Shown: positions 2,792 through 10,904, numbered from the stretch's first letter. The stretch is DNA of 64,000 bases from Chlamydiota bacterium (GCA_048498835.1 JBEHXF010000003.1:516-64515); one strand, 5' to 3'. Notes: generated from the letters alone by a model not told the origin. A program made the numbers and translations.

Positions 2792-3074
2792 TTTCAATAT
2801 AGTTTCAGCCATGACCTGATCGGTTTGACGGCAGAAATTACAGGATGAGAAATCGAAAAGATATCGTCTTGCTGGGTGAAAATATCCATTTTTAGAAGAC
2901 CCTCAAATTTAAAGCTGCAACTCCTTTAGAATGAAGATTAAATAGAGATCTCACTAATCAACACCGGATACGCCATCCGAGCTTCCGTAAAAAAATTCTT
3001 TTATTTTAAGAAAAAGTTCTTAAACTTTCCTTCGTCAAATCTTTAACTAGACGGTTACATACACGGAGGAAAGT

Positions 3075-6000
3075 GTGAAATATATAAAAATGAAGTGGTT
3101 GATTCTATCAATCGCTACGATCGGTTTTCTCGGAGCGCAAGAGGTTACTGACCAGCCCACCGAGTCCTATGGCTTGGCTCCATTAAAGGAAGCTGAAAAG
3201 GAAAAAATTCGCCGTCACTCAAAGCGCGTGATCCGTGTAAAGAGAAACCGCCTCGCGCGGCAAAGAGCCCTTTTGTCTGGTGAAGATCAGGCGATTATAG
3301 AAGAAGGTGGCTTACAGAGCGAACCGGGGGAATTCGACTTAATGGAGATTCCCGTTGAGGACGCTGAGCTCATGCTCGGTGCAGAAGAGCCTCTTCCATC
3401 AAGCGTCAACAACTCTCTCTTGCCCAGCTTTCCTCCGATTGGAAACCAGGGAAACCTCGGATCTTGCGTCGCTTGGGCTTCGACCTACTATCAAGCCACG
3501 CATGAAATTGGGCTGTTGAATGGAAATGACAATAAGGCAAGTAATGACCACGTCCTTTCCCCAAAGTGGACCTACGACATCTTAAACGAAGGGAAAAATG
3601 GGGGACTCTCTCCTCTCGATGCTTTCCTCCTCCTCTCATCCAATGGAGCTCCAAGCATTGCAAGATTCCCTTATGATATGAATTACCTTGCCTGGGATTT
3701 GAATAGTCAAGATTGGTTTGATGCCCTTTATAATAGAATGGCCGACTACGTCCTGGTTCCTGGATTAGGGGGAGCCAGTCAAAACTTAACCGCCATCAAA
3801 ACGGCGCTGGCAAATGGTCACGTATTGAGTATTCCGACCTATGCGAGTTCATGGGTCTATTCAACGATTAAGTTTGATCCTGAACAAATCAACAATAAAC
3901 ATATAGGTGACTGGGCGATCACTTACATGAACGGAAAAGAAGGAGGCCACCACATTACGATTGTGGGCTACGACGATACGCTTTGGGTCGATGTAAACGG
4001 AAACGGTTCGGTCGACAGCGGCGAGAGAGGCGCTTTCTTGATCGCCAACTCGTGGGGGCCATCCTGGGGAAATCGTGGATTTGCATGGGTCTCTTACGAT
4101 GCGTTCCTATCCGCTAGCAAAGTCGTACGCGGACCCTCTACAGGAAGAGTTCCATTTTCTGATTACTTATCCAACCAAGCGATCCTCATTCTTCCCAAAG
4201 CACCTCACTACTCTCCAAGCCTTGTGGCTCTGTTCTCTGTGACGGGCTCGCGAAGAGGAGAGTTAGCTTTTCAGGGAGGACTTTCCAATACAGGCAGGGA
4301 TACGCCAAGTCAAATACTATATAACCACGCACTTACTTATAATGGCGGGGCATTGAACTTTACGGGATCGATAACTAGCGTTCCTATGACCGTTGAATTC
4401 GCTATGGATTTTAGCGACTTTTTAAGTTCAGTGGGGACTACAACACAGCGCTTCTATATCACTGCGCTCGATAACCGCAAGGGAAATCCAACAACCGTGA
4501 ACTCGTTTCGATTAAAAGATCTCGTACACGGCACAGAAGTCGCGGCTCTTGGGACTCCAGCTATGATTGATAACAGCTCGGCACTACTCTTCTTAGACTA
4601 TGATTATTCTCGGGGAGTTTCGCCCGCTATAGATACGCCAGTGGTCAACATCACAGCGCCAGCAAGCGGTGCTACCATCAACGGAACTGCGACAGTCTCT
4701 GCAAAAATTACGGGTACTTCGCCTATTACGAGTGTGACTTTGTCTGTCGATTCGGTCCCAATGGGAGCGATGGCCTTCTCGGGAACGACTTACTCTATCG
4801 CCCTCGATACGACTAAAATCTCTAACGGCAACCATACGCTTGTCATTACTGCTACGAATTACGGCGGCAAAGTAGGTACCGCTACGCAAGTGGTAAATGT
4901 ATCAAACGTCGATGTACCTGTGATCTCGGTCGTTTCTCCAACAGGATCCGGCGCGGTTTCGGGAACAGTCCCCCTATCCGTACTCGCAACAAGCTCTTCG
5001 CAGATTACGAGTGTCTCTTTGACAGTCGACTCTATTCCGAAAGGGAATATGACACTCTCAGCAGGTAAGTATGGATTCTCACTCGATACAACAACACTTT
5101 CGAATGGAACCCATACGCTTGTGTTTACTGCGACCAATAGCGGCGGCAAGACAAACACAGCGAAGCTGACAATCGACGTGATGAATGTGCAGCCTCCTGT
5201 CATCACACTGGTTACGCCAACCAATGGCGCTACCGTTCAGGGAAGCATTCCCTTGTCGGTTACTGTGACGAGCGCTTCGCAAGTGACAAGCGTCGCATTG
5301 AGCGTAGATTCTAATCCGGTAGGAAACCTAATCCTATCGAATGGAAACTACAGCACTTCCATCGATACGACGCAGCTTGCGAACGGATCGCATACGTTCC
5401 TATTTACCGCTACGAATGCAGGCGGCAAGGTGTCGACGGCAACATTGAGTGTCAATGTGCAGAATGTCGATGTTCCAGCCATTTCTGTTCTTTCCCCAGA
5501 TGGAGGTTCAACCGTTAGTGGATCTGTTCCTTTGTCTGTAAAAGTAACGGGAAATACACCGATTTCCACGGTCTCTTTGACCATTGATTCTGTTTCGATG
5601 GGAAATTTGACACTGACCAATGGCAACTATGGAATCTCGGTCGATACGACCATGCTTTCTAATGGAAGCCATACGTTCCAAGTGACCGCAAGAAATAGCG
5701 GAGAAAAAACTGCAACCGCAACAGTAACATTGAATGTAGCCAACTTCGATGTTCCTGTAGTCAACGTTCTCACACCCGCAAAGGGCGATACCGTTAAAGG
5801 AATCGTTCCATTGTCCGTGCAAGTTGTCGGCGACACGCCCATTTCAAGCGTTGCGCTCACAGTCGATGCTACGTCGATGGGAAATTTGACCCTATCGAAT
5901 GGAAGCTATGGCGCCTCATTGGACACGACACAACTTTCCGATGGAAGCCATACGCTGAAATTTGTCGCGACGAATATCGGTGGCAAAACAGCTTCAGCTA

Positions 6001-6743
6001 CCCTGACGGTAAACGTATCGAATGTGGACACTCCCACACTCGCTGTTCTGACACCTGCCAATGGCGCTACTTTGAACGGCACAGTTCCGTTCTCTGTGCA
6101 AGTGACAGGAACAACAGCCATTTCAAACGTGGCACTCACAGTTGATTCTACATCAATGGGAAATTTGACTCTGTCAAATGGAACTTATGGGATTTCGCTC
6201 GACACGACAAAGCTCTCAAACGGAAGCCATACGCTGAAATTTGTCGCTACGAATAGCGGCGGCAAAACAGCTTCAGCTACCATGACGGTAAACGTATCGA
6301 ACGTGGTTCAGTCGAATTCCTATTTTGTGAACGTAGGAGGAGATGCACTTACCTCTGGAGGACATGATTGGATCAGTGACGCTGGTCTATTTACAGGGAC
6401 GACAACAACGGAAAGCAGCGACCTCCCCTTCGCCGATCCAATTTATCAAACAGCGCGTTATGGAAATATGAAATATACGTTCAACGTTCCCAACGGAAAA
6501 TATAACGTAAAACTCAAGTTTGCAGAGCTCGTTTACCAAAAAACCGGATCGAGACTATTTTCTGTTTCTATCAATGGAAAAAGCGCCTTCACACTGGTCG
6601 ATTTAGTTAAAAGAGCAGGCTACGGCGTTCCGTATGATGCTTCAACGACAACGACTGTGAGCAATGGCACTTTGACCATTGAACTGAAGGGCAGCGTAAA
6701 CCTACCCGTGCTTAACGGACTAGAAATCGTTCCTGTGAAATAA
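3075..6743 (+). CDS. Secreted papain-family (C1) cysteine peptidase with 6 Ig-like modules and C-terminal malectin-like domain
   Basis: GGAGGA lies 4 nt before GTG 3075 (ATG 3090 is an alternative start). Signal peptide MKWLILSIATIGFLGAQE. Catalytic contexts NQGNLGSCVAWAS (Gln at -6, Cys), GGHHITIVGYDD (His), ANSWGPSWGNRGF (Asn-Ser-Trp). Six 93-aa repeats. C-terminus YFVNVGGD..IYQTARYG..KFAELVYQKTGSRLFSVSING is malectin-like. Confidence 0.9.
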   Translation: MKYIKMKWLILSIATIGFLGAQEVTDQPTESYGLAPLKEAEKEKIRRHSKRVIRVKRNRLARQRALLSGEDQAIIEEGGLQSEPGEFDLMEIPVEDAELMLGAEEPLPSSVNNSLLPSFPPIGNQGNLGSCVAWASTYYQATHEIGLLNGNDNKASNDHVLSPKWTYDILNEGKNGGLSPLDAFLLLSSNGAPSIARFPYDMNYLAWDLNSQDWFDALYNRMADYVLVPGLGGASQNLTAIKTALANGHVLSIPTYASSWVYSTIKFDPEQINNKHIGDWAITYMNGKEGGHHITIVGYDDTLWVDVNGNGSVDSGERGAFLIANSWGPSWGNRGFAWVSYDAFLSASKVVRGPSTGRVPFSDYLSNQAILILPKAPHYSPSLVALFSVTGSRRGELAFQGGLSNTGRDTPSQILYNHALTYNGGALNFTGSITSVPMTVEFAMDFSDFLSSVGTTTQRFYITALDNRKGNPTTVNSFRLKDLVHGTEVAALGTPAMIDNSSALLFLDYDYSRGVSPAIDTPVVNITAPASGATINGTATVSAKITGTSPITSVTLSVDSVPMGAMAFSGTTYSIALDTTKISNGNHTLVITATNYGGKVGTATQVVNVSNVDVPVISVVSPTGSGAVSGTVPLSVLATSSSQITSVSLTVDSIPKGNMTLSAGKYGFSLDTTTLSNGTHTLVFTATNSGGKTNTAKLTIDVMNVQPPVITLVTPTNGATVQGSIPLSVTVTSASQVTSVALSVDSNPVGNLILSNGNYSTSIDTTQLANGSHTFLFTATNAGGKVSTATLSVNVQNVDVPAISVLSPDGGSTVSGSVPLSVKVTGNTPISTVSLTIDSVSMGNLTLTNGNYGISVDTTMLSNGSHTFQVTARNSGEKTATATVTLNVANFDVPVVNVLTPAKGDTVKGIVPLSVQVVGDTPISSVALTVDATSMGNLTLSNGSYGASLDTTQLSDGSHTLKFVATNIGGKTASATLTVNVSNVDTPTLAVLTPANGATLNGTVPFSVQVTGTTAISNVALTVDSTSMGNLTLSNGTYGISLDTTKLSNGSHTLKFVATNSGGKTASATMTVNVSNVVQSNSYFVNVGGDALTSGGHDWISDAGLFTGTTTTESSDLPFADPIYQTARYGNMKYTFNVPNGKYNVKLKFAELVYQKTGSRLFSVSINGKSAFTLVDLVKRAGYGVPYDASTTTTVSNGTLTIELKGSVNLPVLNGLEIVPVK
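4632..6305 (+). repeat. 6 x 279-bp in-frame tandem repeats (93-aa Ig-like modules)
   Basis: Each module reads D(T/V)P..(V/L)..P..G..(V/L).G.(V/A)(P/T)(L/V)S..(V/A)T....I(T/S)SV.L(T/S)VDS...G...LS.G.Y...(L/I)DTT.LSNG.HT(L/F).F.ATN.GGK. Antisense shadow ORFs recur at a 279-bp spacing (5627, 5906). Confidence 0.9.
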
Positions 6744-6753
6744 GTTTGTTGCC

Positions 6754-10819: not shown

Positions 10820-10829
10820 GCTCATTGCC

Positions 10830-10859
10830 GCGTGGGGCTTTCTGCCCCACGCTTTCTTC
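10830..10859 (+). terminator. Rho-independent terminator
   Basis: gcgtgggg-ctttctg-ccccacgc followed by tttcttc. The stem is identical to the one at 6754. Confidence 0.75.
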
Positions 10860-10904
10860 AAAGAAATCCTCAAAACTTCCCTTAAAGGTGCTGGGTTAAA
10901 ATAT

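Follow-up and report, generated by a model that had tools for sequence, protein, structure and literature searches.

Numerous complex multidomain cysteine proteases of family C1A were reported from many bacterial phyla, Chlamydiae included, in a 2023 survey that expressly left them unanalysed (PMC10380794). Among those that have been described, Cwp84 of Clostridioides difficile consists, in order, of a signal peptide, a propeptide, a cathepsin-L-like domain, a packed "lectin-like" β-sandwich and C-terminal localising repeats (PMC4089489), while Lpg2622 (NttB) of the amoeba parasite Legionella pneumophila is a C1 peptidase that carries a signal peptide, is secreted by the type II route, is found in the culture supernatant and is dispensable for growth in the amoebae tested (PMC6617341). 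M60-like and mucinase peptidases may carry a carbohydrate-binding module (CBM) of family CBM32 or CBM5_12, which directs them to glycoproteins so that cleavage is CBM-dependent (PMC3267712, PMC13003899). Bacterial malectin domains usually sit in glycoside hydrolases (PMC8287233), which makes a fusion of malectin to a protease unusual. Such a fusion is encoded twice, by adjacent genes, in a 64,000-nucleotide stretch of DNA from a Chlamydiota bacterium (GCA_048498835.1 JBEHXF010000003.1:516-64515; the whole stretch is called the window below). The products, named paralogue 1 and paralogue 2 here, are papain-family proteases, predicted to be exported, in which a protease head is joined to the C-terminal malectin domain by six or seven immunoglobulin (Ig)-like modules.

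The gene pair is a tandem duplication. Its features are as follows, with coordinates counted from the first letter of the window.

2988..3074, plus strand: leader of unit 1, with GGAGGA 4 nt 5' of the GTG; it aligns with 6786-6871
3075..6743, plus strand: gene of paralogue 1, 1222 amino acids, GTG start
Paralogue 1 by residue: signal peptide ~1-21, pro-region ~22-106, C1A domain 107-345, β-sandwich 346-519, six Big_7 modules 520-1077, malectin domain 1078-1222
3393..4109, plus strand: C1A catalytic domain of paralogue 1 (Pfam PF00112), with Gln125, Cys131, His292 and Asn325-Ser326-Trp327
4110..4631 (paralogue 1) and 7907..8428 (paralogue 2), plus strand: β-sandwich, residues 346-519, from the predicted structure; no Pfam family
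4632..6305, plus strand: six tandem 93-residue Big_7 Ig-like modules of paralogue 1 (Pfam PF17957)
6306..6740, plus strand: malectin domain of paralogue 1 (PF11721), Pfam 73 bits
6754..6776, plus strand: intrinsic-terminator-like hairpin of unit 1, a 9-bp stem with 8 G-C pairs, then TTTCTTC
6786..6871, plus strand: leader of unit 2, with GGAGGA 4 nt 5' of the GTG
6872..10819, plus strand: gene of paralogue 2, 1315 amino acids, GTG start; laid out as paralogue 1, with seven Big_7 modules and the malectin domain at ~1171-1315
9636..10382, plus strand: youngest part of paralogue 2's Ig array, where Tandem Repeats Finder counts 2.7 copies of a 279-bp unit with 85% matching
10830..10852, plus strand: terminator-like hairpin of unit 2, its stem identical to that of unit 1

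The two DNA units (2988-6785 and 6786-10860) are alignable end to end at 87-89% identity. BLASTN returned 3.3 kb at 87% plus 1.0 kb at 89% that is shifted by 279 bp, and this offset therefore corresponds to one additional module in unit 2, the only large difference between the units. At the protein level the paralogues are 86% identical and align without gaps over 1077 amino acids; a 93-residue insertion follows, after which they are again colinear to the C-terminus. The leader reads ...CACGGAGGAAAGTGTGAAATATATAAAAATG in both units, the in-frame ATG five codons 3' of the GTG start is without a GGAGGA-type site, and about 10 nt past the stop codon of each gene lies the hairpin GCGTGGGGC-(5 nt)-GCCCCACGC followed by TTTCTTC. 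An earlier, sequence-only reading of this DNA had proposed two adjacent open reading frames (ORFs) for proteins of 1222 and 1315 amino acids, each in a unit with its own leader, GGAGGA-GTG start context and identical-stem terminator, and all of these are present as described. It had also called the proteins colinear over the first 519 residues; the colinearity holds, but the limit was set far too early.

On profile matches and a predicted structure, both proteins belong to peptidase family C1A (papain family, clan CA). Peptidase_C1 (PF00112) scored 34.8 bits in paralogue 1 and 24.3 bits in paralogue 2, compared to a gathering score of 20.7, and the match spans profile positions 14-204 of 220. 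Gln125, Cys131, His292 and Asn325, the predicted catalytic residues, are unchanged across an alignment of 55 homologous sequences, as is Ser326. A sequence search of the PDB brought the catalytic blocks into register with the corresponding ones in cathepsin K and Lpg2622, and BLASTP against papain aligned Gln19/Cys25 and Asn175 and placed the mature N-terminus of papain at Leu107. With the 55 homologues as input, AlphaFold2 modelled residues 1-522 at a mean predicted local distance difference test score (pLDDT) of 89.1, and Foldseek found 235 PDB matches to the model at E≤0.001, with procathepsins K, L and S, papain and xylellain at the top (E 1e-10 to 4e-12) and a template-modelling score, normalised to the mature cathepsins, of about 0.7. 

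The N-terminus resembles a cleavable signal peptide by a crude hydropathy calculation, with a positive start, a hydrophobic core at residues 8-19, an LGA|QE site and no lipobox cysteine. Paralogue 1 has a single cysteine in its 1222 residues, the catalytic Cys131, which we read as typical of exported thiol proteases; paralogue 2 has two. Residues 22-106 are assigned to a pro-region because the mature N-terminus of papain aligns with Leu107. This stretch of ~85 amino acids is kept across the family (consensus YGL.PL..E...KVI.V.PN.LG..RI) and is predicted to be folded in the model of residues 1-522; a Pfam scan of the pro-region alone at E≤10 gave no match, Inhibitor_I29 included. By analogy with related enzymes it probably holds the protease inactive until it is cut off.

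The catalytic domain is probably packed against a family-specific β-sandwich of ~170 amino acids, which follows this type of C1 domain in every homologue and goes with it in hundreds of protein clusters from many phyla. The β-sandwich has a pLDDT of 86.9 when folded alone and above 90 inside the 1-522 model. Scanned alone against Pfam at E≤10 it had no match, and its model had no match in the PDB at E≤0.001 (Foldseek). A Cwp84-like lectin domain was considered as its identity and rejected: the structural matches were generic β-sandwiches (PLAT, C2, MmpS5) at E>0.01, and Cwp84 entries were absent from the 50 best of 708 Foldseek matches.

Behind the head, Big_7 (PF17957) matched six stretches of paralogue 1 (200.6 bits) and seven of paralogue 2 (217.3 bits), and cutting the array into units gave a regular period of 93 amino acids. 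The stretch at 9636..10382 includes the module that paralogue 1 is without. By its profile scores the C-terminal domain belongs to the malectin family PF11721, which matched paralogues 1 and 2 with 73.0 and 76.5 bits at a threshold of 23. A phmmer comparison of the domain with Xenopus malectin (2jwp) gave E 2.4e-8, and a profile built from 21 C-terminal domains of the family matched Xenopus malectin (2jwp/2k46) over ~120 residues at E 1.2e-22 (83.7 bits) and human malectin at E 3e-21; weaker matches were plant FERONIA (56 bits, E 3e-14) and the C-terminal domains of Bacteroides glycoside hydrolase family 2 (GH2) enzymes (53 bits, 3e-13 or weaker). PF11721 is a family that we take to be CBM57 of the CAZy classification. 

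The sequence-only reading had listed a signal peptide, a full C1 catalytic set, six or seven Ig-like modules and a malectin-like C-terminal domain for both proteins. This inventory was recovered in each of its parts: the N-terminus is signal-peptide-like and without a lipobox (again by the crude calculation only), the quoted motifs (NQGNLGSCVAWAS, GGHH.TIVGYDD, ANSWG.SWGNRGF and the malectin strings) are all present in the paralogues, the catalytic residues align with cathepsin K, Lpg2622 and papain, and the module counts agree between Pfam stretches and 93-residue units. It had named a Pfam scan and an AlphaFold/Foldseek comparison as checks; Peptidase_C1, Big_7 and Malectin all came out above threshold in both paralogues, and the protease domain was placed in the papain fold with a best E of 4e-12. 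The pro-region and the β-sandwich at residues 346-519 had been overlooked.

The reading towards which we lean, with modest confidence and on the domain assignments and the predicted structure, is that each gene encodes a Sec-exported C1A zymogen with a stalk, in which the malectin module tethers the protease to a glycan outside the cytoplasm. The protein would be exported by the Sec pathway by means of the cleavable signal peptide, and removal of the pro-region would activate the enzyme, as in other C1A zymogens. It may then be released from the periplasm, perhaps by type II secretion, by analogy with NttB/Lpg2622 of Legionella. A rigid stalk of six or seven Big_7 modules, with a reach of roughly 20-30 nm (an estimate from typical Ig-domain lengths), would join the protease head to the C-terminal malectin module, and the latter would dock on a glucose-containing glycan, which might be part of an amoebal or other host glycoprotein, of the host surface or of a vacuolar glucan. 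The stalk would then let the head sweep and cut nearby proteins, for nutrient release or for remodelling of the host surface. The gene structure, the duplication, the domain identities, the catalytic residues, selection and the distribution come from the data; that the protein is a zymogen, leaves the periplasm, binds a glycan and acts on a host substrate is what we infer. Targeting of host glycoproteins, i.e., glycan-guided proteolysis, is a reasonable hypothesis.

Several observations weigh against this tethered-protease reading. A scan for sigma-70 promoters found no site in the leader of either unit, and when ORFs were clustered across 31 loci of chlamydial or unplaced metagenome-assembled genomes (MAGs) of PVC (Planctomycetes-Verrucomicrobia-Chlamydiae) type together with the window, no partner gene (e.g., for an inhibitor, a secretion component or a glycosidase) recurred that would hint at the function; only the protease itself did (three of the 31 loci are labelled Verrucomicrobia and one Dependentiae). 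The ligand-binding residues are a further point. Those that contact the diglucoside in Xenopus malectin are Tyr67, Tyr89, Tyr116, Phe117 and Asp186, at a constant offset of 23 from the chain indexing of 2k46. Tyr89 alone of the five is unchanged in the window proteins, as Tyr1129, and it varies in the family. Tyr116 is replaced by Val and Tyr67 lands in a variable loop (HMMER and family alignments); Asp186 probably corresponds to the conserved Asn/Asp before (I/L)NG and would be Asn in the window proteins. At the position of Phe117 the window proteins have Tyr and most family members an aromatic residue, which makes it the sole contact position that is generally aromatic. Because the contacts are partly kept, sugar binding by the malectin domain is plausible, while its specificity cannot be read from the sequence. 

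A more specific proposal is that the malectin domain, possibly acquired from a host, keeps the specificity of the endoplasmic reticulum (ER) lectin for terminal Glc-α1,3-Glc (Glc, glucose) on immature N-glycans, so that the protease would be guided to glucosylated host glycoproteins at an ER-associated vacuole, with the two paralogues covering different sets of substrates. We regard this proposal as very unlikely. If it were true, the ER-lectin specificity would make the enzyme a glycoform-selective protease directed against host secretory or quality-control cargo.

The two copies have been maintained. The ratio of nonsynonymous to synonymous substitution rates (dN/dS; Nei-Gojobori) between the paralogues is 0.16-0.20 in every domain and about 0.2 overall, at a dS of 0.34, and from the low values in all domains it follows that both copies are under purifying selection. 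The features of the pair are thus not a product of chance. That one or both are decaying, functionless duplicates is scarcely credible and may be taken as largely refuted: tandem duplicates are often short-lived and no promoter was recognised, but the two frames run unbroken through 3.7 and 3.9 kb, none of the catalytic residues has been lost, each copy has kept its ribosome-binding site and terminator, and the overall dN/dS at this dS speaks against decay. The synonymous divergence is uneven: dS reaches 0.57 for the C1 domain and 0.81 for the β-sandwich, as against 0.14-0.25 in the signal peptide and pro-region, the Ig array and the malectin domain. This suggests that gene conversion has homogenised the ends of the genes, that the catalytic head is older and more diverged, or that the ancestry is mosaic. 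On any of these readings the paralogues are least alike in the protease and β-sandwich, where the specificity for substrates would lie, and this would fit somewhat different preferences of the two enzymes. Ig modules at matching positions of the two paralogues are 81-96% identical, compared to 43-77% between modules of one protein, which makes the array older than the duplication of the gene. In paralogue 2, module 7 is nearest to module 6 (82-84% identity), so that it arose by a later internal duplication.

A word-indexed protein search identified about 55 metagenomic proteins of 670-950 amino acids, 38-52% identical, that combine Peptidase_C1, zero to three Big_7 modules and Malectin; the Joint Genome Institute calls several of them "C1A family cysteine protease", and a member of one such cluster is annotated as Chlamydiae/Chlamydiota. 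The same type of search with the malectin domain alone gave no match, and with a malectin alignment it gave only malectin-only fragments of 90-250 amino acids. An exact look-up of paralogue 1 in an index of contigs gave no entry. Exhaustive phmmer with residues 1-522 matched 5904 clusters (50% identity) at E≤0.001, 735 of them at E≤1e-30; the alignments of many start near residue 30 and stop near 515, in proteins with total lengths of 500-3200 amino acids. In the species representatives of GTDB the protease head was found in 295 coding stretches, and among the hosts are Chlamydiota, Verrucomicrobiota, Planctomycetota, Bdellovibrio, Myxococcota, Desulfobacterota, Dependentiae, Saccharibacteria, Omnitrophota and Methanosuratincola. 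On these matches the head (pro-region, C1 domain and β-sandwich) is a widespread module with many different tails. A malectin domain follows it at 11 of the 80 best loci; eight of these are chlamydia-labelled (Parachlamydiaceae, Rhabdochlamydiaceae, Simkaniaceae, Chlamydiae) and three are labelled "uncultured bacterium". Thus, whether or not Ig modules precede it, the malectin tail was seen in the recovered genomes only where these are chlamydia-labelled or unplaced, and in no other named phylum. Most homologues carry a single Ig module, and a Rhabdochlamydiaceae protein has seven and no malectin domain. In a Chlamydiae MAG (ZH-Jul18-154; locus L003, 3383-7317) two protease genes are adjacent, the first with one Big_7 module and malectin, the second, of 509 amino acids, seeming to stop after the β-sandwich. 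The stalk of six or seven modules and the tandem pair are features of the window's genome.

This distribution bears on the possibility that the malectin domain targets a glucan matrix (glycogen-like material in the vacuole, a cyst wall, a biofilm or detritus), much as CBMs do for glycoside hydrolases, and that embedded proteins are degraded there, with no specific recognition of host glycoproteins. The malectin profile also matches the C-terminal domains of Bacteroides GH2 enzymes, and the same head is found in predators and degraders, fused to PKD, CBM and dockerin modules (Bdellovibrio, Myxococcota, Fibrobacteres and dockerin-bearing clostridia). Set against this, the fusion to malectin is confined to MAGs labelled as chlamydiae or as "uncultured bacterium", known chlamydiae are obligate intracellular organisms, and an animal ER lectin is the best PDB match, ahead of the GH2 domains. 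We regard digestion outside the host cell, associated with a polysaccharide matrix, as an unlikely function.

A protease that anchors itself to its own cell is a doubtful alternative: here the malectin domain would bind a glycan of the chlamydial envelope (the lipopolysaccharide core or another surface polysaccharide) and hold the head above the bacterial surface, where it would process bacterial proteins or host proteins that come into contact. The binding module is C-terminal and behind a stalk, as in surface-displayed enzymes, and no other anchor was found with Pfam/NCBIfam or at the N-terminus (no lipobox, β-barrel or sorting signal). It counts against this alternative that malectin and CBM57 domains are not known to tether proteins to the envelope of Gram-negative bacteria. 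Homologues without an Ig module and without malectin occur in the same clade, so that anchoring is not essential to the protease. A described precedent for self-anchoring is Cwp84, a C1A protease with an accessory β-domain and wall-anchoring repeats (PMC4089489) that is among the PDB sequence matches, but the β-sandwich of the window proteins had no match to Cwp84's lectin-like domain among its 50 best.

The same architecture could be that of an adhesin in the main, in which the Ig array and the malectin domain attach elementary bodies to host glycans while the protease serves only for self-maturation or release. The six or seven Ig modules, compared to one in most homologues, resemble the stalks of bacterial adhesins, and the lectin is at the distal end. 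Yet no part is conserved as widely as the protease head, which is under purifying selection and whose catalytic residues do not vary. Moreover, the lectin is C-terminal and neither end has a recognisable cell anchor, so that a bridge between bacterium and host would be impossible unless another anchor exists. An adhesin is for these reasons quite improbable, and the exported, glycan-tethered protease is the reading that we retain.

The window is supported as being of chlamydial origin by its other sequences. Its PNPase is 83% identical to that of MAG BP5.bin41, and the next 80 matches (66-82%) carry the labels Chlamydiae, Parachlamydiales or Parachlamydiaceae or come from MAGs that are unlabelled or labelled Verrucomicrobia; for the protease, too, the nearest copies in genomes belong to Chlamydiae MAGs. 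These similarities support as the source an uncultured member of the Chlamydiota without a close species representative. The remaining genes of the window are those of an ordinary chromosome (e.g., MetRS, Ffh, RF-1, PNPase, FtsH and LptF/G).

A number of further observations were made in the window. Immediately upstream of the pair, at 1280-2791 on the plus strand, lies a gene for a 503-residue protein in which Pfam recognises an F-box motif at 22 bits, slightly over the threshold. F-box proteins are typical of amoeba-associated bacteria, and by this match the protein is a candidate for an effector of eukaryote-like type. At 56204-57133 (plus strand) a MORN-repeat protein of 309 amino acids is encoded; MORN repeats are mostly eukaryotic, and this may be another eukaryote-like protein of the genome. 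An integrated element of 8.8 kb (13.84-22.69 kb) is found at the tRNA-Asn gene (22665-22738, minus strand) and is bounded by a 26-bp direct repeat of the tRNA-Asn 3' end at 13842-13867 and 22660-22685. It carries genes for a tyrosine integrase (21383-22651), a DUF3987 protein (18484-20094), a primase zinc-ribbon protein (17324-18331) and a helix-turn-helix regulator (14353-14784), in addition to several ORFs without a Pfam match. The protease genes lie outside 13.84-22.69 kb, which rules out that they are cargo of this element.

Four tandem paralogous genes for proteins of 156-163 amino acids, with a mutual identity of 40-55%, lie at 46296-48401 on the minus strand; one was scanned and had no Pfam match, and upstream of them the ORF 45634-46320 is a fifth, weakly similar one. 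At 42699-44507 (plus strand) a class II aminoacyl-tRNA synthetase is encoded in which tRNA-synt_2 and an OB anticodon domain are followed by a C-terminal YbaK-type tRNA_edit domain, and we do not recognise this fusion of tRNA-synt_2 to a C-terminal tRNA_edit as a standard one. At the left edge of the window (67-705, plus strand) two ORFs have very proline-rich translations with PPPP runs; they could represent spurious frames where a gene is encoded on the opposite strand, or a low-complexity protein.

Environmental chlamydiae live as obligate intracellular bacteria; hardly any work has been done on their secreted enzymes, and none of their papain-type proteases has been characterised. The combination of a cysteine protease with malectin is absent from reviews of malectin as regards bacteria. 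Glycan-guided proteolysis has so far been established for zinc mucinases of gut bacteria; should the lectin steer the protease to host glycoproteins, the principle would be extended to another catalytic class and to intracellular symbionts of protists. Apart from this, the analysis delineates a large C1A family (hundreds of clusters in many phyla) whose members share a conserved pro-region and an accessory β-sandwich; the latter is without a relative in Pfam or the PDB and is a reasonable target for structural work.

Compared to the known systems, the closest protein in the PDB by sequence is Lpg2622/NttB of L. pneumophila (6a0n; E 3e-4), with which the His and Asn-Ser-Trp blocks align. The similarity is limited to ~60 residues, and Lpg2622 is a single-domain protein of 343 amino acids without a β-sandwich, Ig stalk or lectin. 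Cwp84 (4ci7, 4d59) is likewise a multidomain C1A protease and is among the PDB sequence matches. It differs in that it belongs to a Gram-positive bacterium, uses CWB2 repeats on a wall polymer, has the S-layer precursor SlpA as its substrate and is without an Ig stalk and malectin, and according to Foldseek the accessory β-sandwich of the window proteins is not of the Cwp84 type. Animal malectin, the ER lectin for Glc2-N-glycans (Xenopus 2k46/2jwp; human 9ikp, 6s7t), shares PF11721 with the C-terminal domain but is a stand-alone, membrane-anchored ER protein, and its ligand contacts are only partly kept in the window domain. The CBM-appended mucinases share the principle of a secreted peptidase of a host-associated microbe combined with a carbohydrate-binding module; they are, however, zinc metallopeptidases outside clan CA, with CBMs of other families, they belong to gut and mucosal bacteria and their mucin substrates have been demonstrated. 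Full-text literature searches for malectin with chlamydiae or malectin with cysteine protease found nothing, so that the malectin fusion was not found described there. The statement of the sequence-only reading that no characterised protein has this architecture stands as far as these searches go, whereas the uniqueness that it implied does not, as the ~55 metagenomic proteins share it. The window genes are members of the multidomain prokaryotic C1A class, and their architecture is real, conserved and uncharacterised: a modular variation on secreted multidomain proteases rather than a new type of system.

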